Shown piece after piece: positions 8,008 to 50,339 of a stretch of 64,000 nt of DNA. The translations under genes were made by a program, and so were the position numbers. How positions within the stretch are numbered: the first letter of the stretch is position 1; every line of letters begins with the position of its first letter. Where the stretch lies: the NCBI RefSeq assembly GCF_044324785.1, contig NZ_CP172127.1. One strand, 5' to 3'. This stretch comes from Escherichia coli. GTDB lineage: Bacteria; Pseudomonadota; Gammaproteobacteria; Enterobacterales; Enterobacteriaceae. A model generated the notes under the pieces. That model was given only the letters and a program-made list of their open reading frames with translations, was not told where the DNA came from and did no database searches.

Positions 8008-9039
<1,032 letters not shown>

Positions 9040-9157
9040 CTAAAATTAGTCGCTTTTGGCGGTGAATGCTGAATTAAAACGCAGAATTTTGTCCGATAGT
9101 GGTATCGGTGTACCATTCGCGCAGACGAAAATTCTTAACCTTAATCTGGAATACGCC

Positions 9158-19793: not shown

Positions 19794-19947
19794 TGTTAAG
19801 CCCTCGTCATGAGGGCTTTATCCTCATATTGTTCAAATCACCAGCAAACACCGACATATTTGCAACTCAATATTCACAACAACCTTACACTGCGACACTA
19901 TTTTCGCTATGGTTATGCGTAAGCATTGCTGTTGCTTCGTCACGGCA

Positions 19948-19970
19948 ATATAATGAGAATTATTATCATT
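19948..19970 (+). promoter_or_regulatory. Fur-box-like element upstream of gpmA
   Basis: atataatgagaattattatcatt resembles the Fur consensus (gataatgataatcattatc); gpmA is reported to be Fur-regulated. Confidence 0.45.
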
Positions 19971-19995
19971 AAAAGATGATTTGAGGAGTAAGTAT

Positions 19996-20748
19996 ATGGC
20001 TGTAACTAAGCTGGTTCTGGTTCGTCATGGCGAAAGTCAGTGGAACAAAGAAAACCGTTTCACCGGTTGGTACGACGTGGATCTGTCTGAGAAAGGCGTA
20101 AGCGAAGCAAAAGCAGCAGGTAAGCTGCTGAAAGAGGAAGGTTACAGCTTTGACTTTGCTTACACCTCTGTGCTGAAACGCGCTATTCATACCCTGTGGA
20201 ATGTGCTGGACGAACTGGATCAGGCATGGCTGCCCGTTGAGAAATCCTGGAAACTGAACGAACGTCACTACGGTGCGTTGCAGGGTCTGAACAAAGCGGA
20301 AACTGCTGAAAAGTATGGCGACGAGCAGGTGAAACAGTGGCGTCGTGGTTTTGCAGTGACTCCGCCGGAACTGACTAAAGATGATGAGCGTTATCCGGGT
20401 CACGATCCGCGTTACGCGAAACTGAGCGAGAAAGAACTGCCGCTGACGGAAAGCCTGGCGCTGACCATTGACCGCGTGATCCCTTACTGGAATGAAACCA
20501 TTCTGCCGCGTATGAAGAGCGGTGAGCGCGTAATCATCGCCGCACACGGTAACTCGTTACGTGCGCTGGTGAAATATCTCGATAACATGAGCGAAGAAGA
20601 GATTCTTGAGCTGAATATCCCGACTGGTGTGCCACTGGTGTATGAGTTCGACGAGAATTTCAAACCGTTGAAACGCTATTATCTGGGTAATGCTGACGAG
20701 ATCGCGGCGAAAGCAGCGGCCGTTGCGAACCAGGGTAAAGCGAAGTAA
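19996..20748 (+). CDS. gpmA: 2,3-bisphosphoglycerate-dependent phosphoglycerate mutase
   Basis: N-terminus [17 protein letters not shown]; start placed at internal ATG of the ORF-track frame. Confidence 0.9.
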
Positions 20749-20772
20749 ACGTCATTCGCTTAAAAATGAGAA

Positions 20773-20802
20773 AGCCGACTGCAAGTGAGTCGGCTTTTTT
20801 GT
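20773..20802 (+). terminator. Intrinsic terminator after gpmA
   Basis: Hairpin agccgact..agtcggct followed by T6. Confidence 0.7.
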
Positions 20803-20895
20803 TTGTCGTTGCTAACAATGGAGCACATTGCCTGATGCGACGCTGCGCGTCTTATCAGGGCTGCAAACGTACAGTCATGGCGATTCGACTATAAA

Positions 20896-21948
20896 TTACC
20901 CGCGACGCGCTTTTACTGCATTCGCCAGTTGACGTAACAGAGCATCGGTATCATCCCAGCCAATGCAGGCATCGGTGATGCTCTTGCCATAGGCCAGCGG
21001 TTCCCCACTCTCGAGGCTCTGATTGCCTTCCACCAGATGGCTTTCCACCATCACGCCAATAATGGCCTTTTCGCCACCGGCAATCTGCTGGCAAACGTCA
21101 GTACAAACATCCATCTGCTTTTTGAATTGTTTGGACGAATTAGCATGGCTGAAATCGATCATCACCTGTGCTGGCAGGCCTGCTTTGTTCAGCCCTTCTT
21201 TCACTTCAGCAACGTGCTTCGCGCTGTAGTTAGGCTCTTTACCGCCGCGCAGAATGATATGGCAATCGCCGTTACCGCTGGTATTCACAATCGCCGAATG
21301 CCCCCATTTCGTTACGGACAGGAAGCAGTGCGGCGCACCGGCGGCATTAATGGCATCGATAGCCACTTTAATCGTACCATCAGTGCCATTTTTGAAGCCT
21401 ACCGGGCAAGAAAGCCCTGATGCCAGTTCGCGGTGCACCTGCGATTCCGTAGTACGTGCGCCAATTGCGCCCCAGCTCATCAGGTCAGCGAGATATTGTG
21501 GGGTGATCATATCCAGGAATTCACCCGCCGCTGGCAGACCGCTGTCGTTAATATCGAGCAGCAATTTGCGGGCAATACGCAGACCGTCGTTGATCTGGAA
21601 GCTGTTATCCATATGCGGATCGTTAATCAGCCCTTTCCAGCCCACCGTAGTACGCGGCTTTTCAAAATAGACGCGCATCACGATTTCCAGCTCATCTTGC
21701 AGCTCTTCACGCAGCGTCAGCAAGCGAGCGGCATACTCTTTAGCCGCGACAGGATCATGAATTGAGCACGGACCAATCACCACCAACAGGCGATCATCAT
21801 TACCTTTCAGGATTTTATGGATCGCTTTTCGGGCATGGGCGACCGTATTCGCGGCATTTTCAGTAGCGGGGAATTTTTCCAGCAATGCGACAGGAGGAAG
21901 TAACTCTTTGATTTCTTTGATGCGTAAATCGTCGTTCTGATAATTCAT
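20896..21948 (-). CDS. aroG: Phe-sensitive DAHP synthase
   Basis: 350 aa starting MNYQNDDLRIKEIKELLPP; synteny. Confidence 0.9.
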   Translation of the reverse strand: MNYQNDDLRIKEIKELLPPVALLEKFPATENAANTVAHARKAIHKILKGNDDRLLVVIGPCSIHDPVAAKEYAARLLTLREELQDELEIVMRVYFEKPRTTVGWKGLINDPHMDNSFQINDGLRIARKLLLDINDSGLPAAGEFLDMITPQYLADLMSWGAIGARTTESQVHRELASGLSCPVGFKNGTDGTIKVAIDAINAAGAPHCFLSVTKWGHSAIVNTSGNGDCHIILRGGKEPNYSAKHVAEVKEGLNKAGLPAQVMIDFSHANSSKQFKKQMDVCTDVCQQIAGGEKAIIGVMVESHLVEGNQSLESGEPLAYGKSITDACIGWDDTDALLRQLANAVKARRG

Positions 21949-34322: not shown

Positions 34323-35891
34323 TTAGCGTGCCGGCTGAGTAGTCGTGGAAGACTGCTCAAAGTGATAGCGACCGGTTTTCAGGCTGCTTGGGCCGAGGCG
34401 TGCAAACTTGAACATTAAGAACAATTCTGCCACCAGGAACAGGGTATACAGGCCGCAAATCAGCACCATTGAGAAGATGAGGTCGCCTGCGGTCAGTGAC
34501 GAGTTCGCCACAGCTGTCGGCAGCACTTCACCGATAGCCCACGGTTGGCGGCCATATTCAGCCACAAACCAGCCCGCTTCTACAGCAATCCACGGCAGCG
34601 GAATACCGTACAGCGCGGCGCGCAGCAGCCATTTTTTCTCGCCAATGCGGTTGCGGATGACACTCCAGAAAGAGAGCGCGATGATTGCCAGCAGCAGGAA
34701 GCCACACGCCACCATGATACGGAACGCGAAGTACAGCGGCGCTACACGTGGAATGGAGTCTTTGGTTGCCTGTTGAATCTGCGCTTCAGTTGCATCCGCC
34801 ACGTTTGGCGTATAGCGTTTCAGCAGCAGACCGTAACCGAGGTCTTTCTTCATGCTATTGAACTGATCACGAACCGCCTGGTCGGTAGAACCAGAACGCA
34901 GTTGCTCGAGCAGAGAGTACGCCTTCATCCCGTTACGAATGCGTTCTTCATGCTGCACCATCAGTTCTTTCAGGCCGATAACTGGAGTATCCACGGAACG
35001 CGTTGCAATGATGCCCAGCGCGTAAGGGATCTGGATCGCAAATTTGTTCGTCTCCTCTTCCTGATCAGGAATGCCGAACAGAGTAAAGGCAGCAGGCGCA
35101 GGTTGCGTTTCCCACTCGGCTTCAATAGCAGCCAGTTTGGTTTTCTGCACGTCGCCCATTTCGTAGCCGGATTCATCACCCAGAACAATAACAGACAGAA
35201 CGGCAGCCATACCGAAGCTGGCAGCGATAGCAAAGGAGCGTTTAGCGAAGGCGAAGTCACGACCTTTCAGCATATACCATGCGCTGATACCGAGGATGAA
35301 CATCGCGCCAGTCACATAACCAGACGCTACAGTGTGAACGAATTTCACCTGAGCAACCGGGTTAAGCACCAGCTCGGAGAAGCTCACCATCTCCATACGC
35401 ATAGTTTCAAAGTTGAAATCGGATGCGATTGGGTTTTGCATCCAGCCGTTCGCAACCAGAATCCACAGTGCGGACAGGTTTGAACCGAGCGCCACCAGCC
35501 AGGTGACACACATATGCTGAACTTTACCCAGACGATCCCAACCGAAGAAGAACAGACCTACAAAGGTGGATTCGAGGAAGAAGGCCATCAGACCTTCGAT
35601 TGCCAGCGGCGCACCGAAGATATCCCCTACATAGTGGGAATAGTAAGACCAGTTAGTCCCGAACTGGAACTCCATGGTCAGACCGGTAGCCACACCCAGA
35701 GCGAAGTTGATACCAAACAACTTGCCCCAGAACTTGGTCATATCTTTATAAATCTGTTTGCCGGAAAGGACGTAGACCGTTTCCATAATGGCCAGCAGGA
35801 ACGCCATACCGAGCGTCAGTGGCACAAAAAGGAAGTGGTACATCGCGGTCAAGGCAAACTGTAAGCGCGACAGTTCGACTATATCTAACAT
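34323..35891 (-). CDS. cydA: Cytochrome bd-I ubiquinol oxidase subunit I
   Basis: N-terminus [20 protein letters not shown]; start placed at second Met of the ORF-track frame. Confidence 0.9.
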
Positions 35892-36229
35892 CATGACTCC
35901 TTGCTCATCGCATGAAGACTCCGAGAGTGAACCCCGTTAGAAAGGGTCACACGCATGCCCCAATACAAAATTATTTGCTCGCCTCTATCGTTGCCATTTC
36001 ATCAAAAGAGGAAAAGACAATGATAAAAAAGTTACAAATATGTTAATGAATAAACCAAATTGATCCCGTAATTATATTACGCCGCAAAATCCTTACAATA
36101 AACAGGTTTTTATTGAGCAAATTTGCATTTTTCGACAGTGATCAATTTATAGCGAAATTGTCACGACATCACCAATTTGATCTACGACAATTTATCGTGT
36201 TTTGCAGATTTTTTTCAAGAATTAAAAAT

Positions 36230-36243
36230 TGATTTATATCAAA
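36230..36243. promoter_or_regulatory. FNR-type site (TTGAT-N4-ATCAA) in the cydAB upstream region
   Basis: Perfect ttgatttatatcaa palindrome about 340 bp upstream of cydA in a long AT-rich leader; cydAB is FNR/ArcA-regulated. Confidence 0.4.
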
Positions 36244-36696
36244 ATCAGCCAAATATGTTAATTATGTATAAACCATAGATCATTGGTAATTTTATTGTTA
36301 ATTTATTGTGAAATATTTATGCAACACAATTATTACAATGAAAAAGTATAGATAAAAAACCAGTGTTTTATTTAACAGAACCGCCCTATCCACTTTTTAT
36401 AATACCAATTGATTAGAGTAGCCAATTTGTTGCTATTTTACATAACATATTTTTATCAAAGTTAATTGATTGTTGCCTTTATGAGCACCGACCGTAAGCC
36501 CGTTATGTTATTGTTTCATTAGTAATAATCACTTAAATGTATCGATAAAACAGGTATGACTTAGCGGGAGTGATTGTTTCTGAGTGAACAGAGGACACTT
36601 TCGCCTGATAAATGAAAAATGAGCGATTTTTGCAAGTTAGTTTTTCTATAGCCGAGTACGCTCAGCGCCTCGCTTGATTACAATGAGGTTGCTGCT

Positions 36697-37641
36697 ATGA
36701 GTCCTGATAATATCGGTTCGGCTGTCAATCGCTTCTTAGGTTGGCCATCTAATGATCCTCTAAAAACAGATAACGAATCAATGACATCACCCGTGACTGT
36801 GCAGGTAATAAAGATGATTGCCGCCATCCTTGACCCACATCGGATAGTCGTTGGAATCGATACACTTTATACAACGCAGCGCGAAACATTTACCTCAGAG
36901 AGTCAACAGCTCATTGAATCAGCATTGCAAACACTTCATGTGATGAATTTAAATAACCTGGAAACAAATCTCGATGAGGAAGGTCACTATCTGGCTTTTG
37001 GATATAACGTTGACACTCCTGACAGAATAACCGTTTCTGCTTATAATGAAAAAAAGCCTGGCTGCTATGGTCAATGTCTTTTAATACAGGATGACGAAAC
37101 AGACTTATTTAACCTGATAAAAGTTAAAATTTTTGAAACCAGGCATAATTATGTCGCTCAATTGATGAGCGATCCGGAATTTATGTTCAAATTTAGTTAT
37201 AGCGCTCAACAAAATAGATTAGAACCTCATCTTCTGGTTCCCACTTATTTCCCTCTAAAAACAAACGAACCGGTTACGCAAGAGGATGTACTGTTACTTT
37301 ATCGTTTCTTTAAAATGGATGGTGATTTTAATATATTAACATCAGATGAATACATGAGTATCATGACACCTCTGATGAAGTGTGAGCGCAGCATCCACGA
37401 CCACAACAGGTATGTGACGGGCAAAGATACCCTTCTTCTGGACTATCCTCCTTCTGGTAACCAGATATATTTCCATATTTTTCCTGACGAATCAGCAACA
37501 CTAGTCCTTTATTTTTCAAACAATGACATTGAATGTTTCGTCTTTGAAAGAGATATTCCGAGCCAGTATCGCTTTTTCAAAATGTTTACCAATCTGGCAC
37601 TGGTTATTGATCAGTTAACCGATGCCAATCAAATACTTTAA
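36697..37641 (+). CDS. Hypothetical protein (314 aa), no recognisable family, low G+C
   Basis: Long ORF with GAGG RBS 8 nt upstream of ATG; AT-rich codon usage unlike flanking core genes; N-terminus rich in Ser/Thr/Asn/Pro; absent from this position in K-12 as recalled. Confidence 0.5.
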   Translation: MSPDNIGSAVNRFLGWPSNDPLKTDNESMTSPVTVQVIKMIAAILDPHRIVVGIDTLYTTQRETFTSESQQLIESALQTLHVMNLNNLETNLDEEGHYLAFGYNVDTPDRITVSAYNEKKPGCYGQCLLIQDDETDLFNLIKVKIFETRHNYVAQLMSDPEFMFKFSYSAQQNRLEPHLLVPTYFPLKTNEPVTQEDVLLLYRFFKMDGDFNILTSDEYMSIMTPLMKCERSIHDHNRYVTGKDTLLLDYPPSGNQIYFHIFPDESATLVLYFSNNDIECFVFERDIPSQYRFFKMFTNLALVIDQLTDANQIL

Positions 37642-37721
37642 TTTTTATATATTCCCTGTGGCAAATATTGCTAAACAATGCCCGGGGATTAATTTTTATT
37701 ACTCACGGAAAGATTTAAATA

Positions 37722-38144
37722 ATGATCCCATCTCAAATCTCTTTCAACACCCTTCCTGTCAATGCAACATACGCTTCAGAGACAACAGTTGACACACAAA
37801 AATTCTCTGACATCCTCTACTCAGCGGGGTGTTCCCTAAAGGATCTGGCTTATCTGAGCAGATGTCTGGCATCAATACATCCGACTATCGCCAAAAACAT
37901 TTATGAAACAGAAAATCTCAGCGATCAAAAATTACTGCATATTGATTGCCGTAGTACAAATGAAATCAAGATAAATATCTTTTTTGGTCAACAACGAGAA
38001 GGATTAATTGAAATTAATTCTGACACTGTCATTTTTCCGATATTGTCTTCATTAATTGACTCCGCCATTTCTAAATTTCAACACCAAATCCCCGTTAACG
38101 GTTCAGTAAATCCTGACCTATTGTATGAGGATTATACTGATTAA
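37722..38144 (+). CDS. Hypothetical protein (140 aa), acidic, low G+C
   Basis: ORF 80 bp downstream of and co-oriented with the 314 aa ORF; similar AT-rich composition; acidic C-terminus (LLYEDYTD). Confidence 0.4.
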   Translation: MIPSQISFNTLPVNATYASETTVDTQKFSDILYSAGCSLKDLAYLSRCLASIHPTIAKNIYETENLSDQKLLHIDCRSTNEIKINIFFGQQREGLIEINSDTVIFPILSSLIDSAISKFQHQIPVNGSVNPDLLYEDYTD

Positions 38145-38691
38145 ATCCCTCCTGTCGCGAAAAATGGCCTGCGTTATTGCCAGACGTAATAAAACTTTTG
38201 ATTAACGTTACTCGTACTGGTAGCACCTTCATGTACTTTTCTTTTTTACGAAAAATCAAAAGAGCTAACAAAGGTCATAATTCGCATGAATCATTAATTA
38301 TTTGTTATTTTCAACATTATTTTTACATTAAGCAGAGATGAATTGCAGTGAAATTCGACTTAACTTTTATGAAATGCATTTACTCATGGCTAAAGCCACG
38401 TCACAAAAATGCAAATTAGAAGTTGATCACAATTATCTCAATACATCAAATCAAGTTAATTTTAAAAATTTAACATTCATGACATTAGTTGACATAACAC
38501 ACTGAATTAAAATGATAATTTGAAAACACACTTTAAACAATCATTTCCCGAAAGACATTTTGAAAATAGATCAATTGCAACATTACGGTCAGATAAAGAC
38601 ACTCCTGTGATATTAAACCTGTGCCGTTATGAGCGGCCATAAATACGACGTGTGTAACTTATTTTACTCTCTGTCTTACAAAGGATTACCC

Positions 38692-39141
38692 ATGAAGAAA
38701 GCAACACTTGTGATTGGCGTTATTGGCGCGGACTGCCATGCAGTAGGCAATAAAGTTCTGGACCGAGTTTTTAGCAACCATGACTTCAGAGTTATTAATC
38801 TGGGCGTAATGGTCAGCCAGGACGAATATATTGATGCTGCCATTGAAACTGGTGCTGACGCGATTGTCGTCTCCTCTATCTATGGGCATGGCGATATCGA
38901 TTGTCTGGGCATGCGCGAACGCTGCATCGAGCGTGGGCTGGGTAACATCCTGCTCTATGTGGGCGGTAACCTGGTGGTCGGAAAACATGACTTCGCTGAC
39001 GTGGAAACCAAGTTCAAAGAGATGGGATTTGATCGCGTCTTTTCCCCAAGTCATGACTTAGAAGATGTTTGTCAGCTGATGGCCCACGATATCAACCAAC
39101 GTCATGACGTTGATACTCGCATTCTTGAAGAGGCAATCTGA
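38692..39141 (+). CDS. glmS: Glutamate mutase sigma (B12-binding) subunit
   Basis: [18 protein letters not shown] cobalamin-binding motif (DxHxxG); start placed at MKKATLV with AAGGA RBS; stop overlaps the next start. Confidence 0.85.
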
Positions 39142-40529
39142 TGCAAATCGTCTCTGTCGATATTGGATCGACGTGGACCAAAGCAGCCCTCTTCACCCGG
39201 GAGGGGGACGCGTTAACGTTGGTTAACCACGTTCTGACCCCAACCACCACCCATCATCTGGCGAAGGGGTTTTTCTCCAGCCTGGACCAGGTGTTAAACG
39301 TAGATAATGCCCTCCCCCTGTTAAACAGTGGTGAGGTTGCATTGAAGTATTCCTCCTCTGCCAAAGGTGGGCTGGCGGTTGCCGCAATGGGATTGGTGCC
39401 TTCTATCACCCTGGAAACCGCGAAAGTAACCGCTCACTCTGCGGGGGCTAAAATTGCGCAATATTACGCCTACAAGCTGAACCGCCGTGATATCCAGGCA
39501 CTGGAAGAAACGCAGCCCGATATTCTCTTGTTCACCGGCGGCACCGACGGCGGAGAAGAAAGCTACGGCCTGAATAACGCCCGTGTGCTGGCAGAATCCA
39601 AACTCGACTGCGCCATTATTTATGCCGGAAACCGGGATATTCAGGACGAGGTGCAGGAGATCCTAGGGCATAAAGACCTGACCATCGTCGACAATGTTCT
39701 GCCCGATCTTGACCATCCGAACCCTTTAGCTGCACGCCAGGCTATCTGCGACATATTCCTTAAACGCATCGTTAAAGGGAAAGGGCTGGATGTCGTTGTT
39801 GATAAAACAGGCGAAGAACCAATGCCGACACCGTGGACAGTCTTTGAACTGGTTAAGGCAATCAGTAATGTCGATCACAGCTGGAAAGAGTTCATGCTGA
39901 TCGACATGGGTGGCGCAACCACCGATGTCTATTCCGCCTGTGCCAACACGCTCTCGCCCGACACCGTTTTACACGGCGTACCGGAACCCTTCGTGAAACG
40001 GACGGTGGAAGGCGATCTGGGAATGCGCGTCTCGGCAATGGTGGTTGGTGAAAGTGCGAAAGAGTTAGTCAATGTGAATTTTGCTCAGCAACCCGCACAG
40101 CTGGACGCTTTTTATCATTACCTCCGTCATCTAGTCGCTCATCCCGACTACTTACCCGCGAATGCAGAAGAAAAATATTTCGATACCGTCCTGGCCGGAC
40201 TGTGTGTGGGTTATGCCACCGAAAGACATGCGGGCACCAAAAAAGAGGTCTGCACCTGCGTCGGCAATGTCGATTTACAGATGGGACGTGACCTGACAAC
40301 CGTGCGTAAAGTCGTCGGATCCGGCGGATGGCTCTCGCGTGCCAGTCAGTTCGATATGCATCACTGGTTGAAATACCGCGAGTTAAACGACGACGGTAAA
40401 CGCATTCTCTTACCGACCGAATTTGAATATTACCGCGATTCCCGGGGGCTATTACCACTGCTGGCAAACGTCGCCAGAGTCGATCCACTGGCCGCCGCGC
40501 GCACCAGTATTCAATGCTTAACCCTATAA
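39141..40529 (+). CDS. glmL: Glutamate mutase accessory/reactivating protein (MutL/GlmL-like)
   Basis: 462 aa starting [18 protein letters not shown] (ASKHA/actin-like ATPase fold); sits between the S and E subunit genes as in clostridial glutamate mutase operons. Confidence 0.75.
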   Translation: MQIVSVDIGSTWTKAALFTREGDALTLVNHVLTPTTTHHLAKGFFSSLDQVLNVDNALPLLNSGEVALKYSSSAKGGLAVAAMGLVPSITLETAKVTAHSAGAKIAQYYAYKLNRRDIQALEETQPDILLFTGGTDGGEESYGLNNARVLAESKLDCAIIYAGNRDIQDEVQEILGHKDLTIVDNVLPDLDHPNPLAARQAICDIFLKRIVKGKGLDVVVDKTGEEPMPTPWTVFELVKAISNVDHSWKEFMLIDMGGATTDVYSACANTLSPDTVLHGVPEPFVKRTVEGDLGMRVSAMVVGESAKELVNVNFAQQPAQLDAFYHYLRHLVAHPDYLPANAEEKYFDTVLAGLCVGYATERHAGTKKEVCTCVGNVDLQMGRDLTTVRKVVGSGGWLSRASQFDMHHWLKYRELNDDGKRILLPTEFEYYRDSRGLLPLLANVARVDPLAAARTSIQCLTL

Positions 40530-40547
40530 CAATTAAGGCTGCAATCA

Positions 40548-41993
40548 ATGGAACTTCGAAATAAGAAATTAACCCATGACGAATTCATGACCGAGCGGCA
40601 ACAGGTACTGAAAACCTGGGAAACCGGCAAGGATGTTGAAAACTTTGAAGATGGCGTTAAATACCAACAAACCATTCCTGAGCATAAACGCTTCTCTCTT
40701 GCGCTGTTGAAAGCAGACAAGGAAGGTAAAACCCTTAGCCAACCGCGCGCAGGTGTGGCGCTGATGGACGAACACATCGAACTACTGAAAACACTACAAG
40801 AAGAGTGCGATCTGCTGCCGAGCACCATCGATGCATATACCCGTCTGAATCGGTACGAAGAAGCGGCTGTAGGGATTAAAAAATCCATCGAAGCCGGAAC
40901 CTCTAAACTGAACGGTTTACCGGTAGTTAACCACGGCGTCGCAGCTTGCCGTCGCCTCACCGAAACTTTGCAAAAACCGCTACAGATCCGCCACGGCACG
41001 CCAGATGCGCGTCTGCTGGCTGAAATCTCGATGGCCAGCGGCTTTACCAGTTATGAAGGCGGCGGCATTTCCTACAATATTCCGTATGCCAAGCGCGTAA
41101 CGCTGGAAAAATCGATCCGCGACTGGCAGTACTGCGACCGTTTAATGGGGATGTATGAAGAACACGGGATCCGCATCAACCGCGAACCGTTTGGCCCACT
41201 AACGGGTACGCTGATCCCGCCGTTTATCTCGCACTCTATCGCGATAATCGAAGGATTACTGGCGCTGGAACAGGGTGTGAAATCTATCACCGTTGGTTAT
41301 GGACAGGTCGGCAGCCTGACGCAGGATGTTGCGGCGATCCAGTCTCTGCGTGAACTTGCACATGAATACTTTCAGAGCTATGGCTATACCGACTATGAAT
41401 TAAGTACCGTGTTTCACCAGTGGATGGGCGGCTTTCCGGAAGACGAATCGAAAGCGTTCGCTATTATCTCCTGGGGCGCAGCCGTCGCGGGGATGTCTGG
41501 TGCCACCAAAGTCATCACCAAAAGTCCGCACGAAGCCTGGGGTATCCCGACTGCCGCTGCCAACATTCAGGGGCTGAAAGCCTCCCGCCAGATGCTCAAC
41601 ATGGTCAATGAGCAGAAATTCCCGCCGTGCCCTGCGGTTGAACTGGAAATTGAACTGATTAAGAGCGAGGTTCGCGCGGTACTGAATAAAGTGTTCGAAC
41701 TGGGTAATGGTGATATTGCGCGCGGTACGGTGCTGGCATTTGAAGCGGGCGTACTGGATGTGCCGTTTGCGCCAGCCGCCTGCAACGCGGGCAAAATTCT
41801 TCCGGTCCGTGACAACACCGGCGCAATACGCGTACTGGAAGCCGGAGCCGTTCCATTGCCAAAAGATATTCTCGACCTCCACCACGATTACGTTGCGGAA
41901 CGCGCACGCTTTGAAGGACGCCAACCGACATTCCAGATGGTTGTAGATGACATCAATGCTGTATCCCACAGTAAATTAATAGGAAGACCATAA
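40548..41993 (+). CDS. glmE: Glutamate mutase epsilon (catalytic) subunit
   Basis: 481 aa with extensive similarity to remembered clostridial GlmE/MutE (e.g. QPRAGVALMDEHIELL, NREPFGPLTGTL, FQMVVDDI). Confidence 0.85.
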   Translation: MELRNKKLTHDEFMTERQQVLKTWETGKDVENFEDGVKYQQTIPEHKRFSLALLKADKEGKTLSQPRAGVALMDEHIELLKTLQEECDLLPSTIDAYTRLNRYEEAAVGIKKSIEAGTSKLNGLPVVNHGVAACRRLTETLQKPLQIRHGTPDARLLAEISMASGFTSYEGGGISYNIPYAKRVTLEKSIRDWQYCDRLMGMYEEHGIRINREPFGPLTGTLIPPFISHSIAIIEGLLALEQGVKSITVGYGQVGSLTQDVAAIQSLRELAHEYFQSYGYTDYELSTVFHQWMGGFPEDESKAFAIISWGAAVAGMSGATKVITKSPHEAWGIPTAAANIQGLKASRQMLNMVNEQKFPPCPAVELEIELIKSEVRAVLNKVFELGNGDIARGTVLAFEAGVLDVPFAPAACNAGKILPVRDNTGAIRVLEAGAVPLPKDILDLHHDYVAERARFEGRQPTFQMVVDDINAVSHSKLIGRP

Positions 41994-43234
41994 TGAAAAT
42001 AAAACAGGCTCTGTTCACCGCTGGCTACTCCTCATTCTATTTCGATGACCAGCAGGCGATAAAAAACGGAGCGGGTCATGACGGCTTTTTTTATACCGGG
42101 GAGCCAGTAACACAGGGGTTTAACGCCGTACGTCAGGCCGGGGAGTGCGTATCGGTACAGTTGATTCTGGAAAACGGCGCGGTCGCTGTAGGTGACTGTG
42201 CTGCCGTACAGTATTCCGGGGCAGGTGGTCGCGATCCACTGTTCCTCGCAGAGCACTTTATTCCGTTCCTCAACGACCATATTAAGCCATTACTGGTAGG
42301 CCGCGATGTAGATGCTTTCCTGCCGAATGCCCGTTTCTTCGACAAATTGCGTATTGACGGCAACTTGCTACATACCGCCGTACGCTACGGATTATCACAG
42401 GCGCTGCTTGATGCTACCGCGCTGGCAACCGGCCGTCTGAAAACTGAAGTGGTCTGTGATGAATGGCAGTTGCCACGCGTGGCGGAATCCATTCCATTAT
42501 TTGGTCAGAGCGGGGACGATCGATATATCGCCGTCGATAAGATGATCCTTAAGGGCATCGACGTGCTGCCCCATGCACTGATTAATAACGTCGAAGAGAA
42601 ACTGGGCTTTAAAGGTGAAAAACTGCGCGAATATGTCCGCTGGCTGTCGGATCGTATTCTGAGCAAGCGCACCAGCGCACGCTACCACCCTACCCTGCAC
42701 ATCGATGTATACGGCACTATCGGTCTGATCTTCGATATGGATCCGCTTCGCTGTGCGCAATACATCGCCAGCCTGGAAAAAGAAGCGCAAGGCCTGCCGC
42801 TCTACATTGAAGGGCCGGTCGATGCCGGTAACAAGACCGATCAAATTCGCCTGCTGACCGCGATTACCAAAGAGCTGACGCGCCTCGGTTCCGGCGTGAA
42901 AATTGTGGCCGATGAATGGTGTAACACCTACCAGGATATTGTTGATTTCACTGATGCCGCCAGTTGCCACATGGTGCAAATCAAAACCCCGGATCTGGGC
43001 AGTATTCACAACATCGTCGATGCAGTTCTTTATTGCAACAGCCACAGCATGGAAGCGTACCAGGGCGGCACCTGCAATGAAACTGATGTCAGTGCCCGCA
43101 CCTGTGTCCACGTCGCCCTTGCCGCTCGCCCCATGCGTATGCTGGTAAAGCCAGGGATGGGCTTTGACGAAGGCCTCGATATCGTCTTCAACGAAATGAA
43201 TCGTACTATCGCGCTGTTGCAGGCTAAGGATTAA
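41993..43234 (+). CDS. mal: 3-methylaspartate ammonia-lyase (beta-methylaspartase)
   Basis: 413 aa enolase-superfamily protein matching remembered clostridial MAL (GDCAAVQYSGAGGRDPLF, HMVQIKTPDLG); start overlaps glmE stop. Confidence 0.85.
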   Translation: MKIKQALFTAGYSSFYFDDQQAIKNGAGHDGFFYTGEPVTQGFNAVRQAGECVSVQLILENGAVAVGDCAAVQYSGAGGRDPLFLAEHFIPFLNDHIKPLLVGRDVDAFLPNARFFDKLRIDGNLLHTAVRYGLSQALLDATALATGRLKTEVVCDEWQLPRVAESIPLFGQSGDDRYIAVDKMILKGIDVLPHALINNVEEKLGFKGEKLREYVRWLSDRILSKRTSARYHPTLHIDVYGTIGLIFDMDPLRCAQYIASLEKEAQGLPLYIEGPVDAGNKTDQIRLLTAITKELTRLGSGVKIVADEWCNTYQDIVDFTDAASCHMVQIKTPDLGSIHNIVDAVLYCNSHSMEAYQGGTCNETDVSARTCVHVALAARPMRMLVKPGMGFDEGLDIVFNEMNRTIALLQAKD

Positions 43235-43237
43235 CAA

Positions 43238-44608
43238 ATGGCTCGTTCTTTTAAAGTCTTATCGCCAACGGCAATCCTCGGGTATGGATTCCCGGAAGAG
43301 AGCTTCCGCAAAGCGATGGCAGAATCGCCCGATCTGATCGCCGTTGATGCAGGCTCTTCCGATCCAGGCCCCCACTACCTCGGGGCGGGCAAACCGTTTA
43401 CCGATCGCGCAGGGGTCAAGCGCGATCTGCGCTATATGATCACCGCAGGCGTTCAAAATAATATACCGGTGGTGATCGGAACGGCCGGCGGTTCTGGTGC
43501 CGCTCCACACCTGGAGTGGTGCCGAGAAATAATTCATGAGATTGCCCGGGAAGAGCACCTCTCGTTCTCGATGGCGCTGATCCCAGCAGACGTTGACAAA
43601 GCCATCGTCCACCAGGCGCTGGATAACGGCAAAATCACGGCGCTGGATTTTGTCCCGCCGTTAACCCACGACGCGATTGACGAAAGTACGTATATCGTCG
43701 CGCAAATGGGCATCGAACCCTTCCAGCGGGCGCTGAAAGAAGGCGCGCAAGTGGTGCTGGGCGGGCGCGCTTACGACCCGGCCTGCTTTGCTGCGCTACC
43801 GATCATGCAAGGCTTTGATGAAGGTCTGGCGCTGCATTGCGGGAAAATCCTTGAATGCGCGGCAATCGCCGCAACGCCCGGCTCAGGCTCTGACTGTGCG
43901 ATGGGCATCATTGATGACAACGGCTTTACGCTGAAGACATTTAATCCGAAGCGTAAATTTACCGAAACGTCAGCAGCTGCACACACACTGTATGAGAAAT
44001 CCGATCCCTACTTCCTGCCAGGACCTGGCGGCGTGTTGAACCTGAAAGGCTGCACATTTAAAGCGGTCAATGACGGCGAAGTGTACGTCAGCGGTTCTAA
44101 GCATGAAGAAACGCCGTATGCCCTGAAACTGGAAGGTGCGCGACGGGTGGGCTTCCGCTGTCTGACCATCGCCGGAACGCGCGACCCGATCATGATCGCC
44201 GGGATCGATAAAATCATCGATGAAGTCAAAACCAGCGTTTCGCGTAACCTGTCGCTCGACGATGACAGCATTCGCATCAATTTCCACCTGTACGGCAAAA
44301 ACGGGGTGATGGGCGACCATGAACCGATGCAAACTGCCGGGCATGAGCTGGGGATTGTCCTAGATGTAGTTGCACCGACCCAGGAAATTGCCAACAGCGT
44401 TTGCTCGCTGGTGCGCTCTACTATGCTGCACTACGGCTATGAAAACCGCATCGCTACCGCAGGCAACCTGGCGTTCCCGTTCTCCCCTTCTGATATCCAG
44501 GGCGGGCCAGTATACGAATTTTCCATATATCACCTGATTGAAGCCAACGACGCTCTGCGTTTTGATTTCCATATTGAACAGGTGACGCCAGAAGGAGTTC
44601 AGGCATGA
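43238..44608 (+). CDS. DUF1446-like (AtuA-like) protein of unknown function
   Basis: 456 aa ORF beginning 4 nt after the mal stop; family assignment from memory of the N-terminal region, not verified. Confidence 0.55.
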   Translation: MARSFKVLSPTAILGYGFPEESFRKAMAESPDLIAVDAGSSDPGPHYLGAGKPFTDRAGVKRDLRYMITAGVQNNIPVVIGTAGGSGAAPHLEWCREIIHEIAREEHLSFSMALIPADVDKAIVHQALDNGKITALDFVPPLTHDAIDESTYIVAQMGIEPFQRALKEGAQVVLGGRAYDPACFAALPIMQGFDEGLALHCGKILECAAIAATPGSGSDCAMGIIDDNGFTLKTFNPKRKFTETSAAAHTLYEKSDPYFLPGPGGVLNLKGCTFKAVNDGEVYVSGSKHEETPYALKLEGARRVGFRCLTIAGTRDPIMIAGIDKIIDEVKTSVSRNLSLDDDSIRINFHLYGKNGVMGDHEPMQTAGHELGIVLDVVAPTQEIANSVCSLVRSTMLHYGYENRIATAGNLAFPFSPSDIQGGPVYEFSIYHLIEANDALRFDFHIEQVTPEGVQA

Positions 44609-44922
44609 AACAGTCAATTGTCTCACTGGCGCAAGTCATTCGTTCGAAAAATGCCGGACCTTACGAACTGGTTTTAGATATTTTATTTAAAACCAAAGAA
44701 AACTATGAGCGAGTTAAATCATCAGGGCAATTAACCCCAGAACTGATTGCGCGCTTATATCATGTTGAACCTGACTTTATTCACCGTATTGTCTGGTTTG
44801 ATCCTTCTAACGCAGTAAAAATCGTCATGCCACGAGATATTATCTCCGGGAATGTAGGTGACAATGATGTCTATGGTGCACAGCAACATGCACCTTTATT
44901 AAATATGAGTTTCGATTTGTAA
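44605..44922 (+). CDS. Small protein (105 aa), DUF4387-like
   Basis: Start overlaps the stop of the preceding ORF (ATGA); DUF1446/DUF4387 pairing recalled from other genomes. Confidence 0.5.
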   Translation: MKQSIVSLAQVIRSKNAGPYELVLDILFKTKENYERVKSSGQLTPELIARLYHVEPDFIHRIVWFDPSNAVKIVMPRDIISGNVGDNDVYGAQQHAPLLNMSFDL

Positions 44923-45003
44923 AAATCCGAACATTTTTAGCCAACTGACATCCCGTCACTTATTGCAGTTCAACACTTCAGCTATTTGTAAGGTTGTAAT
45001 AGC

Positions 45004-45055
45004 AGGTAGATGCCTGAATCTCTATTCGGGCATCTACTTCTCCTGATTCTGATTT
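45004..45055 (+). terminator. Candidate hairpin/partial terminator between the enzyme block and the transporter gene
   Basis: 10 bp stem GTAGATGCC..GGCATCTAC followed by a T-rich tract (ttctcctgattctgattt). Confidence 0.3.
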
Positions 45056-45082
45056 ATCGCCGTGCACCTGATGGAGGAAAAA

Positions 45083-46363
45083 ATGAAGAAAATAAGTTTA
45101 ACCACGATGATTCTTTTGGCGCTGGTACTTGGAATGATTATCGGCGTAGTGCTCAATAACACTGCTTCACCGGAAACCGCAAAACTCTATGCGCAAGAAA
45201 TATCGATATTCACGACGATTTTCTTACGACTGATAAAAATGATTATCGCTCCGTTAGTGGTCTCTACCCTGGTGGTAGGTATAGCTAAAATGGGCGATGC
45301 CAAAGCCCTTGGTCGTATTTTTTCTAAAACACTCTTTTTATTTATTTGCGCCTCATTGCTGTCAATTGCCTTAGGCTTGATAACAGTAAATTTCTTCATG
45401 CCAGGCACAGGAATTAATTTTGTTGCACACGGAGCCGAAACCACCGGAGTGGTCGCGTCAGAACCCTTTACGCTAAAAGTATTTATTTCGCATGCTTTCC
45501 CCACCAGCATTGTCGATGCCATGGCGCACAATGAAATTTTGCAAATCGTGGTGTTCTCAATTTTCCTCGGCTGTAGCCTGACGGCGATTGGCGAGAAAGG
45601 CAGCGCCATCGTTCACGCCTTAGATTCGCTGGCACATGCCATGTTAAAGCTCACTGGCTACGTCATGCTCTTCGCTCCCCTGACCGTATTCGCTGCTATT
45701 TCAGCATTGATTGCTGAACGAGGACTGGCAGTTATGGTGAGCGCCGGGATCTTTATGGGTGAATTTTATTTCACCATGTTATTACTTTGGGTGCTGCTTA
45801 TCGGTCTGGCCATCGTTTATGTCGGCCCCTGCATCAGACGCCTGACCCGCGCCCTTTCGGAACCCGCCCTGCTGGCATTTACCACATCCAGTTCTGAAGC
45901 GGCTTTTCCGGGAACGCTTGAAAAACTGGAGCAATTTGGCGTTTCCCCCAAAATTGCCAGCTTTGTCTTACCCATTGGCTACTCATTTAATCTCGTTGGA
46001 TCAATGGCCTACTGCTCCTTCGCCACAGTTTTCATCGCCCAGGCCTGCAATATCCATTTATCCATCGGTGAGCAAATCACCATGCTGTTGATCCTGATGT
46101 TGACCTCGAAAGGAATGGCTGGCGTACCACGCGCCTCAATGGTGGTTATCGCCGCCACGCTCAACCAGTTCAATATTCCGGAAGCGGGGCTGATCTTGCT
46201 GATGGGCGTTGATCCGTTCCTTGATATGGGGCGTTCCGCGACAAACGTCATGAGCAACGCAATGGGCGCTGCGATGGTGAGTCGGTGGGAAGGCGAACAT
46301 TTCGGCGAGGGCTGTCGGGGTAAAGCATTAAAACCCAATGAATCGAACGTTGCTCTGCCCTGA
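45083..46363 (+). CDS. Dicarboxylate/amino acid:cation symporter (GltP/DctA family), probable glutamate uptake
   Basis: Hydrophobic ORF, start placed at MKKISL with GGAGG RBS; GltP-like N-terminus. Confidence 0.8.
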   Translation: MKKISLTTMILLALVLGMIIGVVLNNTASPETAKLYAQEISIFTTIFLRLIKMIIAPLVVSTLVVGIAKMGDAKALGRIFSKTLFLFICASLLSIALGLITVNFFMPGTGINFVAHGAETTGVVASEPFTLKVFISHAFPTSIVDAMAHNEILQIVVFSIFLGCSLTAIGEKGSAIVHALDSLAHAMLKLTGYVMLFAPLTVFAAISALIAERGLAVMVSAGIFMGEFYFTMLLLWVLLIGLAIVYVGPCIRRLTRALSEPALLAFTTSSSEAAFPGTLEKLEQFGVSPKIASFVLPIGYSFNLVGSMAYCSFATVFIAQACNIHLSIGEQITMLLILMLTSKGMAGVPRASMVVIAATLNQFNIPEAGLILLMGVDPFLDMGRSATNVMSNAMGAAMVSRWEGEHFGEGCRGKALKPNESNVALP

Positions 46364-46470
46364 GGGGGATCTTAAGCAATCAGAAGCCAATGACTACGCA
46401 TTTTTATAAGCCGGATCATGAAGTTAGACGGCAATTAAGTAACACTAACGTTTAAGGTGAAAAGTGAAAT

Positions 46471-48123
46471 ATGTCCAAACCATTTATCTGGCAAGAACCG
46501 TTTCTACAAAATAAAGACGGTACAGAATATACATTAATTAGCGATCAACATATTACAGTAACGGAATTAGACGGCGAAGAAGTGATAAAAATCGCTCCTG
46601 AAGCATTAACGCTGCTTGCCCGGCAGGCATTTTATGAAGCCTCTTTTTTCTTACGTTCCGCTCATTTGCAACAGGTCGCCAGCATTCTTAACGATCCGCA
46701 GGCCAGTAGTAATGATAAATACGTTGCGTTGCAGTTATTACGTAATGCTGAAGTCTCAGCAAAAGGGGTATTACCCAACTGTCAGGATACCGGCACCGCA
46801 ACTATTGTTGCCAGTAAAGGGCAACAGATATGGACCGGAGGTAACGACGCCGAAGCCTTAAGCAAAGGCATTTACACCACTTTTCAGGAAAATAATCTGC
46901 GCTTTTCACAAAATGCGCCACTGGATATGTATACCGAAGTCAATACGCAAACCAATCTACCGGCGCAGATTGATATCAGCGCCGTCGCTGGTGATGAGTA
47001 CCATTTTCTCTGTATTAATAAAGGGGGCGGCTCTGCCAATAAAGCCGCGCTTTATCAGGAAACAAAATCCCTATTGCAACCAGAAAAACTGACCGCATTT
47101 TTAATCGAAAAAATGAAATCGCTGGGCACCGCTGCCTGCCCGCCTTACCACATCGCCTTTGTCGTCGGAGGGCTTTCAGCCGATCAAACCTTAAAAGTTG
47201 CCAAGCTGGCCTCAACGAAATATTACGACAATTTGCCCACCAGCGGAAACGCGCAGGGACAAGCATTCCGTGATATTGAGTTGGAAAAAGCGTTGCTCAA
47301 CGCCAGTCAGCAATTTGGTATTGGTGCGCAATTTGGGGGTAAATATTTCGCTCATGATATTCGCGTCATTCGTCTGCCGCGTCACGGTGGCTCTTGCCCG
47401 ATAGCTATGGCGCTCTCCTGTTCTGCCGATCGCAATATCAAAGCAAAAATTAACAAGCACGGTATCTGGCTGGAAAAACTCGTACACAATCCGGGGCAAT
47501 ATATTCCAGCCTCACTGCGGGAAGAAAATCACCCGCAACATGTACAGCTGGATCTAAACCGTCCGTTGCGTGACGTGATGCAGGATCTCGCCAGATTACC
47601 GGTAGGCACCCGCGTGTCGTTAAATGGTCCCATCGTAGTGGCGCGCGATATCGCCCACGCCAAAATAAAAGCGCGGCTGGATAGCGGCGAACCGATGCCG
47701 GATTACCTGAAGCATCATATTGTCTATTACGCTGGCCCGGCGAAAACACCTGAGAACATGGCCTGCGGTTCACTGGGTCCAACCACGGGTGGACGAATGG
47801 ACGGTTATGTCGATACCTTCCAGGCGGTTGGCGGCAGTCTGGTGATGTTATCGAAAGGTAACCGCAGCCAGCAGGTCACCGATGCCTGTCACAAACATGG
47901 CGGCTTCAATCTGGGAAGTATTGGCGGTGCAGCAGCGTTACTGGCGCAAGAATATGTCAAAAGTCTGCGTTGCCTGGAATACCCGGAGCTGGGTATGGAA
48001 GCGGTGTGGATGATGGAAGTGGAAAATCTGCCCGCATTCATCCTGGTAGATGATAAAGGCAATAATTTCTTTAGTCAGTTTGAGCAGCAACACCGCTGCG
48101 CCAGTTGCCCTGCGGGACATTAA
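46471..48123 (+). CDS. Class I fumarate hydratase paralog (candidate mesaconase)
   Basis: 550 aa nearly collinear with remembered E. coli FumA ([37 protein letters not shown]); located in the methylaspartate cluster. Confidence 0.85.
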
Positions 48124-48132
48124 GGAAAATGA

Positions 48133-48735
48133 ATGGAAGCGCGAATTTCAACTGAACGGCATGTGCAGCGCCAGCAGAAATTGAAGGAACAGGTCGATAC
48201 GCGCGTCGCGGCGGCGATAGAGAAAAAAGGGATCTTGATTGTTTTCACCGGCAACGGCAAAGGGAAATCCACTGCCGCGTTTGGTACTGTGACGCGCGCG
48301 GTGGGTCATGGCAAAACGGTGGGGGTTGCGCAGTACATCAAGGGGCAATGGGACAACGGCGAATACAACCTTCTCCAGCCGCTGGGGGTTGAGTTTCATA
48401 TTATGGGAACCGGTTTTACCTGGGAGACACAGAACCGGCAAGCGGATATCGACGCGGCGAAAGAGGTCTGGTCGGAAAGCAAACGGATGCTGGCTGACAA
48501 GCGTTACGACTTAGTGGTGCTTGATGAGCTGACCTATATGCTGGCTTACCATTATCTGGACACCGAAGAAGTGATCGCTTCTCTGCAAAACCGCCCGGCA
48601 CAACAAAGTGTCATTGTCACCGGACGCGGTTGCCACAGTCAGATATTAAAAATGGCGGATACGGTCAGCGAAATCCGCCCCGTCAAACATGCTTTTGATA
48701 ACGGCATTCAGGCGCAGCCGGGTATCGACTGGTAA
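48133..48735 (+). CDS. ATP:cob(I)alamin adenosyltransferase (BtuR/CobA family)
   Basis: 200 aa with IVFTGNGKGKSTAAFG P-loop; collinear with remembered BtuR. Confidence 0.85.
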   Translation: MEARISTERHVQRQQKLKEQVDTRVAAAIEKKGILIVFTGNGKGKSTAAFGTVTRAVGHGKTVGVAQYIKGQWDNGEYNLLQPLGVEFHIMGTGFTWETQNRQADIDAAKEVWSESKRMLADKRYDLVVLDELTYMLAYHYLDTEEVIASLQNRPAQQSVIVTGRGCHSQILKMADTVSEIRPVKHAFDNGIQAQPGIDW

Positions 48736-48768
48736 TAACTGCGCCTGGCATCCCGCCAGGCGCAGGTT

Positions 48769-49674
48769 TTACATCTCCTGCGGTACGACCGATTTCGCCA
48801 GCAACCATTCACGAAATTGCTGCAAGTGCGGCGAGTCAGACTTCTCTTCCTGCCACGTCATAATAAAACGATTACCGGTACGAATAGGCACATCACAGGG
48901 AATCACCATATCGCCACTATCCAAATCATGTTGAATAGCGAACCGTGGTAACAGCGCCACGCCGAGATTAGAGCGCACGGCGGCAATCAGCATTGAAAGC
49001 AAATCGAAACGTGGTCCGTTGTTGACCAGCGGACTGCTAACGCCAGATAAGGCAAACCACTCTTCCCAGCCAGTAATACGGGTACTTTGATGCAGAAGTG
49101 GTAACTCTGTAAGCAGTTCTGCCACTGACAGTTTTTGATCGGACATTGCAAGCAAACTGCCGCTGCATACCGGCAAAATCTCTTCTTCAAAGAGATATTC
49201 TACTTCCGCCCAGGGCGCGCAAAAATTTTCGCGCATAATGACAGCATCGTACTCCCGATTAAGAAAATCGCCGTTATTAGCTAAAGAGTGAATATTAACA
49301 ATAATATCGGGATGTAACTTTGTGAATTCATGTAAATTTGGGATTAACCAGTGGGTACTAAACGTAGGATTCACGGCAAGTTCAATAACCTGAACCGTAG
49401 GCTGCCAGGTCATAATGGTATTGGTATCGCGTTCCAGCTTATTTAATGTTTCTTTTACTATCCCCAGGTAATACTTCCCTGCATCATTAAGAAAAATACG
49501 TTTTTTAGAGTGTGAAAATAACGGAGTATGTAAAAATTCCTCCAGCGCACTCACTTGTCTGAATACTGCACTTTGGGTTAACGCTAACTCCTCTGCCGCT
49601 CTGGTATAACTTTCATGACGTGCGACGACCTCAAAAGTCACCAGCAGTTCCGTTTTAGGTATTTTCCCTCGCAT
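48769..49674 (-). CDS. LysR-family transcriptional regulator
   Basis: 301 aa with N-terminal LysR HTH (YTRAAEELALTQSAVFRQVSALE); convergent with the pathway operon. Confidence 0.8.
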   Translation of the reverse strand: MRGKIPKTELLVTFEVVARHESYTRAAEELALTQSAVFRQVSALEEFLHTPLFSHSKKRIFLNDAGKYYLGIVKETLNKLERDTNTIMTWQPTVQVIELAVNPTFSTHWLIPNLHEFTKLHPDIIVNIHSLANNGDFLNREYDAVIMRENFCAPWAEVEYLFEEEILPVCSGSLLAMSDQKLSVAELLTELPLLHQSTRITGWEEWFALSGVSSPLVNNGPRFDLLSMLIAAVRSNLGVALLPRFAIQHDLDSGDMVIPCDVPIRTGNRFIMTWQEEKSDSPHLQQFREWLLAKSVVPQEM

Positions 49675-49705
49675 AATGCCGTCCCTTAAAAATAGTTTAA
49701 ACCAT

Positions 49706-49723
49706 CAAAAATACATTACTTAT
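49706..49723. promoter_or_regulatory. Inverted repeat TTACTT-N6-AAGTAA upstream of the LysR gene
   Basis: Perfect 6 bp arms about 32 bp upstream of the LysR start; fits a T-N11-A LysR-type box. Confidence 0.3.
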
Positions 49724-50239
49724 TACGAAGTAATGGTAACCAAAGCAGCAATAAATAATTTATAAGAATCATGATTGACATTTATAACCCAGTAAGCCTG
49801 GCGTGACAAATATCTTAATCAGATAATAATAATCCGAAAAGCACAGCGCCTTTCGAATTATCCGGAATCACATTAAGTGAAAATTATTAAATTGATATCA
49901 TTTATCATATCTGTGGATATTATGATAAACAATCAACAAAGATTTTATTTTTGATTTATAGCATATCCCTCTAAGAATTTTTGCGATGCTGCAATATCCG
50001 GGGTAAAGACCCGATCCTGGCTGACAAATGGCACGACTTGACGATAAGCGGTGAACATCGCTTTTGTTGATTTACTTAACGCTACGGTCAAACGCTGGGA
50101 AGCCAGTGCATCAGGTAACGATTCGAAATTCGCCGTCGTTCTTATTCGTGGCTTGCGGTCGGTTGCGGCAATCCACAGTGGCTGTGGTCATGCAGTCAAG
50201 CCAGCGGTCAGATTTCGACCGTGGTTAACGTTTAAGGCA

Positions 50240-50339
50240 TAAAAAAGGCCATCATACGATGGCCAACCATGTCGAAACCGACAGCCCTTCGCCATTCCTG
50301 TAGAGGGAAGCGGCGAGGGCTATTTCTTATTACAGATAT
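50240..50339 (-). ncRNA. sdhX: sucD 3'UTR-derived sRNA (SdhX/RybD-like) with intrinsic terminator
   Basis: About 100 nt directly downstream of the sucD stop ending in hairpin ggccatcgtatgatggcc plus U-run on the minus transcript; identity by position and memory only. Confidence 0.45.

Follow-up and report, generated by a model that had tools for sequence, protein, structure and literature searches.

Two Escherichia-restricted orphan genes in an AT-rich islet beside cydA appear to be old, vertically inherited and under relaxed purifying selection

Between cydA and glmS, a 64,000-nucleotide stretch of Escherichia coli DNA (contig NZ_CP172127.1 of assembly GCF_044324785.1; hereafter, the window) carries two open reading frames (ORFs) of 314 and 140 codons, which we designate orf314 and orf140. 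We found these to be uncharacterised, lineage-restricted orphan genes in an AT-rich chromosomal islet, a familiar category; they represent two true orphan families that are restricted to Escherichia. A first-pass annotation, made by inspection of the sequence, had put the pair forward as an undescribed system that would fit an effector plus chaperone, a toxin plus immunity protein, or a two-gene phage-defence module. The protein family is indeed undescribed; nothing, however, indicates a system, and the toxin/immunity, defence and effector/chaperone readings are without positive support. In its evolutionary aspect, our description is of genuine orphan genes that are old, confined to one locus, vertically inherited, non-mobile and under relaxed selection, and this we hold with high confidence.

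Neither protein could be placed in a family. Searches of Pfam (with the single sequences and with every member of the alignments), NCBIfam, PADLOC, PHROGs and the sequences of the PDB (single and profile) gave only noise, at E values of 0.14 or higher, and none of the 5027 models of PADLOC-DB v2 matched either protein at E <= 1. The earlier statement that no motif assigns them to a family was thus borne out by profile hidden Markov model and database searches, which detected no confident homology of either protein to a characterised family. A search of 5.8 billion proteins recovered five clusters for orf314 and 42 for orf140, with named sources that were all E. coli or Shigella, and a profile of orf314 compared with all 1.84 billion 50%-identity representatives gave 14 matches, each a short fragment of the same protein. 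Neither the 5.8-billion-protein search nor the profile searches provided distant relatives that could deepen the alignments. Among 100,044 species genomes (one per species), orf314 was found in Escherichia albertii and in Escherichia sp. MOD1-EC7003, a member of the cryptic clade; two contigs from metagenome-assembled genomes in the same scan, with matches of 97-98% identity, look like E. coli DNA that was put in other bins. Homologs of orf140 were restricted to E. coli and Shigella, and many are frameshifted or truncated variants. Likewise, a Foldseek search of AFDB50 returned only entries named "Uncharacterized protein," from E. coli, E. albertii and Shigella. No mention of the O157:H7 Sakai locus tags ECs0767 and ECs0766 was found in the searchable literature, and the pair is unmentioned in the paper on the fumD/glutamate-fermentation cluster (PMC4682846).

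The two ORFs are genuine protein-coding genes, because E. coli and E. albertii share the 314-codon frame and because the ratio of nonsynonymous to synonymous substitution rates (dN/dS, or omega) is significantly below 1. All nine alleles of orf314 that were compared, eight from E. coli and one of the E. albertii type, are exactly 945 nt long and free of internal stops. In 1000 shuffles of positions 36697-38144, the longest stop-free run had a mean length of 83 codons and was at most 162, versus the 314 observed, and no long ORF was found on the strand opposite the pair. The dN/dS of orf314 is 0.27-0.70 among E. coli strains (0.3-0.5 for most pairs) and 0.40-0.45 between E. coli and E. albertii, where dS is ca. 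0.5, while that of orf140 is 0.16-0.45 among E. coli. The corresponding values for cydA and cydB are 0.006 and 0.01-0.03. Fisher tests for dN lower than dS gave p = 3e-7 and 2e-5 for orf314 and p = 1e-3 for orf140. By these measures, selection on both genes is purifying but relaxed. It is unevenly distributed along orf314, where sliding omega is 1.3 (neutral) for residues 1-40, 0.16-0.17 for residues 41-100, the most constrained part, and 0.33-0.73 for the rest. The possibility, raised in the first-pass annotation, that the ORFs are disrupted remnants has a divided answer: the copies in the window are intact and their frames are under selection, yet some lineages carry broken copies, as described below. 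As a separate observation, a comparison of strains N3 and AST85 showed 4-16% divergence in the AT-rich block (36168-38567), coding and non-coding alike, versus 0-4.5% in cydAB and the glm genes. Alleles of orf314 also fall into two deep classes (N3/Sakai-like and AST85/RMDEC465-like) with a dS of ca. 0.16-0.19, versus 0.03-0.08 in flanking genes; an older coalescence, recombination and a higher local mutation rate are each possible causes of this pattern.

The block that contains the pair had been judged AT-rich by eye, and computation of windowed G+C confirmed this: G+C in the block is 35%, and sliding values are 0.27-0.42 across positions ca. 35900-38600, whereas cydAB and the glm genes have 0.48-0.56. 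The G+C content of orf314 is 0.383 (0.359 at third codon positions) and that of orf140 is 0.371 (0.340), versus 0.52-0.54 (0.56-0.65) for cydA, cydB, glmL and glmE and 0.504 for the whole window. Hence the pair is compositionally distinct from the adjacent glutamate-mutase operon, as had been proposed. Positions 35900-38650 are 100% identical to E. coli strain N3. No terminal repeats or att-like sites were found around the block. A 24-nt inverted repeat (36556-36579 and 38535-38558; 75% complementary, with 1955 nt between the arms) brackets the two genes closely, and is probably a chance occurrence in AT-rich DNA. The pair shares several features with enterobacterial ORFans of AT-rich chromosomal islets with H-NS-type silencing: it has no homolog beyond one genus, its G+C is 0.37-0.38 in a window of 0.50, and it is accessory, variably present, often pseudogenised and under relaxed purifying selection. 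It differs from them in its age, being shared with E. albertii, and in its fixation at a single locus, with no recent acquisition. The ORFans usually discussed are short; at 314 aa, orf314 is longer.

The interval between cydA and sucD is a hotspot with alternative contents (Table 1). On one side, the pair is flanked by cydA, which lies on the minus strand and ends at 35894; on the other lies glmS, the first gene of a glutamate-mutase/methylaspartase/fumD island that extends to a LysR gene, followed by sucD, with its far edge at ca. 50239. Homology to K-12/HS-type genomes stops at 36267 and that to LF82-type genomes at 36532, and no remnants of either protein were found in the HS or LF82 haplotypes. 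In all three carrier lineages, namely E. coli, E. albertii and the cryptic clade, orf314 lies ca. 800 bp from cydA, and the two are transcribed divergently. Common descent is the simplest explanation for this fixed position. Neither the 50,697 phage records searched nor IMG/VR contained a copy, and the three apparent plasmid matches are records of 0.73-4.9 Mb that are evidently chromosomal. Thus, the pair predates the split of E. coli, E. albertii and the cryptic clade, and it is vertically inherited and non-mobile. The 258-aa gene that accompanies orf314 in E. albertii encodes a signal-peptide-like N-terminus and is without a recorded Pfam match.

Table 1. Features of the orf314/orf140 locus and contents of the cydA-sucD interval (window coordinates)
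Feature	Position	Strand	Description
orf314 (ECs0767 in O157:H7 Sakai)	36697..37641	+	314 aa, ATG start; "hypothetical protein" in the Prokaryotic Genome Annotation Pipeline (PGAP)
orf140 (ECs0766 in O157:H7 Sakai)	37722..38144	+	140 aa, ATG start; "hypothetical protein" in PGAP
orf314/orf140 intergenic spacer	37642..37721	+	80 nt, AT-rich, G+C 0.30
Conserved region upstream of orf314	36598..36696	+	ca. 100 nt; promoter-proximal or 5' leader probable
cydA-proximal edge of variable segment	36268..36597	.	Ends of HS-type and LF82-type homology
orf140/glmS spacer	38145..38691	+	547 nt, AT-rich, non-coding, G+C 0.32
cydA-sucD interval, this window	35895..50240		orf314/orf140 pair and glm island
cydA-sucD interval, HS (K-12 type)			mngAB, with an IS1 insertion sequence in mngB
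cydA-sucD interval, LF82			Gene for a 371-aa tetratricopeptide repeat (TPR) protein
cydA-sucD interval, E. albertii			orf314, orf140 remnant and a 258-aa gene, without glm operon

Within E. coli, the pair and the glm island are inherited as one haplotype: of 5426 complete genomes, 1135 (ca. 21%) carry the pair and 1131 carry glmE. The remaining genomes have mngAB or a TPR gene in the hotspot. The link between the two is nevertheless historical, not functional: orf314 occurs in E. albertii in the absence of the operon, the operon of MOD1-EC7003 accompanies two ruined ORFs, and many genera reported to carry the operon yielded no homolog of the pair. Reports of the glm/fumD cluster cover Klebsiella, Citrobacter, Salmonella, Yersinia, Morganella and E. 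fergusonii (PMC4682846). Compared with the glmSLE-mal-fumD island of O157:H7 (Kronen and Berg 2015, PMC4682846), to which it is adjacent and with which it is co-inherited in E. coli, the pair differs in composition, divergence rate and taxonomic range. These data support the earlier view that the pair has a history separate from that of the glutamate-mutase operon, since orf314 sits beside cydA in E. albertii where glm is missing and cluster-bearing genera have no homolog of the pair. They also answer the question of whether it always neighbours the mesaconate cluster: it does not, the link being broken in E. albertii and MOD1-EC7003. Co-occurrence is therefore nearly perfect within E. coli but absent in the other cluster-bearing genera. 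Elsewhere in the glm island, positions 43238-44922 (19339-21023 of the strain N3 locus) hold an AtuA-family gene paired with a DUF4387 gene, for which the older Sakai labels ("3-methylaspartate ammonia-lyase" and "acyl-CoA synthetase") disagree with the PGAP names.

The pairing of orf314 and orf140 is not obligate. In E. albertii an orf314 of 314 aa is retained, as seen in protein cluster P0004 (131 member sequences) and in an AFDB entry, and the orf140 region of this species has accumulated several frameshifts and stops, such that residues 30-60 alone are recognisable. The type strain of E. albertii carries an additional A within an A-run, and its orf314 is thereby broken into pieces of 209 and 108 aa. 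Both genes are destroyed in MOD1-EC7003, where the glm operon looks intact: an element of ca. 120 bp lies in orf314 (8349-8470 of that locus; ca. 37045 in the window), and a second, inverted copy (9091-9218) replaces part of orf140, corresponding to ca. 37695-38000 in the window. ATGTAAGCTCCTGGGGATTCAC is present in the copies, as is the reverse complement of AAGTAAGTGACTGGGG; we take these to be the ERIC1R and ERIC2 primer sequences, in which case the inserts would be enterobacterial repetitive intergenic consensus (ERIC)/intergenic repeat unit (IRU) elements lying in what was once coding sequence. Shigella dysenteriae has the pair as fragments only. Among 60 sampled E. coli carriers, four (7%) were disrupted, which is a rough estimate, as the genome-summary rows hide pseudogene flags and single-base indels may be assembly errors; as those rows conceal the flags, counts of rows reading "hypothetical protein (x2)" were discarded as an indicator of whether the genes are intact. 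The four cases are frameshifts of orf140 beside an intact orf314 in LP5-1 and RM9872, a frameshift of orf314 beside an intact orf140 in O55:H7 USDA5905, and IS4-family insertions in Br_112. Because each gene is seen broken beside an intact partner, neither acts as the other's indispensable antidote. The decay of orf140 in E. albertii is unambiguous, unlike the single-base indels of E. coli. A frameshifted orf140 of 160 aa, in which the last ca. 13 residues are replaced and extended, is common (cluster P0014 has 105 members and P0011 is found on 13 contigs); either the acidic tail LLYEDYTD (ca. 38090-38144) is dispensable or the allele is dead in many strains. In strain N3, whose sequence matches the window, RefSeq marks nadA (616-1658 of the N3 locus) and ybgE (8849-9141) as frameshifted, either pseudogenes or assembly indels; ybgE lies just past cydB/cydX in the window, and these calls advise caution with any single-base frameshift in assemblies of this kind.

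The region immediately upstream of orf314 (36598-36696) is 85-90% identical to that of E. albertii, compared with 57-75% for the preceding 120 nt and a mean of ca. 76% for the coding sequence. This conservation probably marks a promoter or 5' leader of orf314. The region contains a 10-codon mini-ORF (ATG at 36619 to TAG at 36651), of which the start and stop are kept and the peptide is not; the conservation of the region therefore looks regulatory, not coding. Predicted RNA folding of the region was no better than that of shuffled sequences (z = -0.17), and no Rfam match was found within 35800-38800. The sequence GAGG lies 8 nt 5' of the orf314 start codon, and the Shine-Dalgarno sequence of orf140 is weak (GGAA only). 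The arrangement of two co-oriented ORFs 80 bp apart is as first annotated, and with no terminator-like site found in the spacer between them, they may be co-transcribed. A scan for promoters and terminators gave counts equal to chance, and neither a plus-strand promoter 5' of orf314 nor a terminator behind either of the genes was seen. The spacer between orf140 and glmS is presumably the control region of the glm operon, lying within the fast-diverging block and separate from the two genes.

Both proteins are acidic, with isoelectric points of 4.64 (orf314) and 4.65 (orf140), and both lack a hydrophobic segment. Acidity had been ascribed to the smaller protein and a polar N-terminus to the larger; each attribution is correct but neither is distinctive, as orf314 is just as acidic and each protein has 46% Ser, Thr, Asn, Pro and Gln among its first 35 residues. 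AlphaFold (AF2) models are poor, because the available homologs are near-identical only: the mean predicted local distance difference test score (pLDDT) is 43.5 for orf314, in which residues ca. 190-290 alone reach 54-84, and 42.5 for orf140. The predicted secondary structure has a theme of helices, an antiparallel beta-meander and a long helix, which occurs at ca. 67-146 and ca. 195-313 of orf314 and at ca. 25-122 of orf140. Specifically, the C-terminal part of orf314 (ca. 190-314) is predicted to form two helices, five strands and a long helix, and orf140 three helices, a three-strand meander and a long helix. The sole structural lead is a marginal resemblance of the modelled C-terminal domain of orf314 to alpha/beta sandwiches. 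The structures in question are seven frataxin/CyaY chains, DR_1245, the immunity proteins TriTu and CdiI, and eight type III class I chaperones (1s28_A, 3kxy_A, 4g6t_A, 1jyo_A, 1xkp_B, 9uwz_A, 2bsj_A and 1ttw_A), all of which share a sandwich of two helices and an antiparallel sheet. Most of these proteins work through protein binding.

Paralogy between modules of the two proteins is possible but unproven. Residues 108-136 of orf140 match residues 137-165 of orf314 locally (hhalign E = 0.023, probability 2%; tblastn E = 0.028 against the E. albertii ortholog), whereas BLASTP between the two proteins gave E = 2.2. Shuffle tests of orf140 gave p of ca. 0.01 against the E. albertii orf314 and p of 0.7-0.86 against the E. 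coli one, and a test for an internal repeat in orf314 gave p = 0.2. A bolder proposal would make the two proteins founding members of a new Escherichia-specific family pair, perhaps distant helix/beta-meander/helix paralogs, that act in a joint niche-specific system (secreted or host-interacting, or a loosely dependent conflict module) by a mechanism without a described counterpart; this we consider distinctly unlikely.

The explanation that best accommodates these results begins with the AT-rich DNA of the pair, which would be an old foreign acquisition. Judging by base composition alone, the genes are probably silenced by H-NS under laboratory conditions. A scan with TCGWTWAATT, which we take to be an H-NS-type motif, was uninformative, as two of the 25 near-matches in the window fall in the block and they are not concentrated there. 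Expression would probably be confined to particular conditions. The products, predicted to be soluble acidic alpha/beta proteins without a catalytic signature, would be non-enzymatic protein-binding factors, adaptor- or chaperone-like, with a niche-limited use. Such limited use would make the pair dispensable. The genes have been lost recurrently via frameshift, insertion sequence (IS) or ERIC insertion, or deletion. The non-catalytic, protein-binding part of this account is offered tentatively, and we regard it as doubtful. Taken as a whole, the explanation is a compromise between the confident evolutionary description and the doubtful mechanism, and we judge its chances to be about even.

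Four other explanations were weighed, and what chiefly counts against them is, in the order given below, selection, genomic context together with the dead orf140, taxonomic uncoupling from the operon, and the lack of a family match or mobility together with the tolerance of single-gene loss. The ORFs could be relics or near-neutral genes that are kept where deletion has yet to occur. An omega of 0.3-0.45 is high for bacterial genes, compared with ca. 0.01 for cydAB, and 79% of complete E. coli genomes lack the pair; pseudogenes in the E. albertii type strain, MOD1-EC7003 and S. dysenteriae, the disruption of four of 60 sampled carriers, the common 160-aa form of orf140 and the poor structure models all fit this idea as well. 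We consider it unlikely, however, as dN is significantly lower than dS in every informative comparison (p 3e-7 to 1e-3), a frame of 314 codons has kept its length across a dS of ca. 0.5 in 38% G+C DNA where shuffles reach at most 162, omega is 0.16 for residues 41-100 of orf314, and the upstream region is conserved. Alternatively, the proteins could be type III secretion substrates, or an effector and its chaperone, that are exported by the systems of the locus of enterocyte effacement (LEE) or E. coli type III secretion system 2 (ETT2), with the polar N-termini as signals and one acidic alpha/beta module as the chaperone. The N-terminal composition is suggestive of a secretion signal, albeit unspecific. 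The pair, however, lies between cydA and glmS with no linkage to a type III secretion island, prophage or effector locus, and the candidate chaperone, orf140, is dead in E. albertii beside a 314-aa orf314. The effector-plus-chaperone suggestion of the first-pass annotation thus finds no footing, and we think it very unlikely.

A role in the glutamate-mutase/mesaconate pathway, for example as a regulator specific to the operon or a factor that helps to assemble the B12 enzyme, would agree with the position of the pair 5' of glmS in the same orientation and with the near-perfect co-inheritance in E. coli (1135 vs 1131 of 5426). Set against this are the other cluster-bearing genera (PMC4682846), which yielded no homolog of the pair, the retention of orf314 in E. 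albertii without the operon, and the reverse situation in MOD1-EC7003, whose operon looks intact though both ORFs are destroyed. In addition, the G+C and divergence profiles shift sharply at ca. 38600, a 547-nt spacer separates orf140 from glmS, and the island comes with a LysR regulator and accessory genes (glmL and cobO) of its own; such a role therefore strikes us as very improbable. Finally, the pair resembles type II toxin-antitoxin and two-gene defence systems in consisting of two small genes that run in the same direction within a variable accessory region rich in AT, and differs from them in having no family match and no mobility and in being confined to one genus and one locus. Toxin-antitoxin and defence systems typically spread by horizontal transfer. 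Neither the 5027 PADLOC models nor any toxin or antitoxin family matched, homologs were found neither outside Escherichia nor on phages, plasmids or viral contigs, the neighbours are metabolic rather than defensive, and the 80-nt spacer is not the tight or overlapping junction of such modules. The single-gene disruptions, of orf140 in LP5-1, RM9872 and E. albertii and of orf314 in O55:H7 USDA5905, argue against a toxin whose immunity protein is essential. Neither the toxin-plus-immunity reading, which lacks a family match and in which either gene may be disrupted with the other intact, nor the phage-defence reading, for which PADLOC and PHROGs gave no match and the single chromosomal position in one genus speaks poorly, is supported by these results. 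We rate a toxin-antitoxin, toxin-immunity or anti-phage function as the least probable of the alternatives, with only a minimal chance of being correct. The rest of the probability we divide among functions other than those named here.

The result chiefly removes this locus from the list of candidate defence and toxin systems. In its place, ECs0767 and ECs0766 offer a case study of bacterial "dark matter," in which long orphan genes of proven age remain under selection and yet are being lost by several routes. A function, if one came to light, would establish a new protein family, and it might explain why this haplotype has been retained at the cydA-sucD hotspot in early-branching and pathogenic lineages, O157:H7 and O55:H7 among them.

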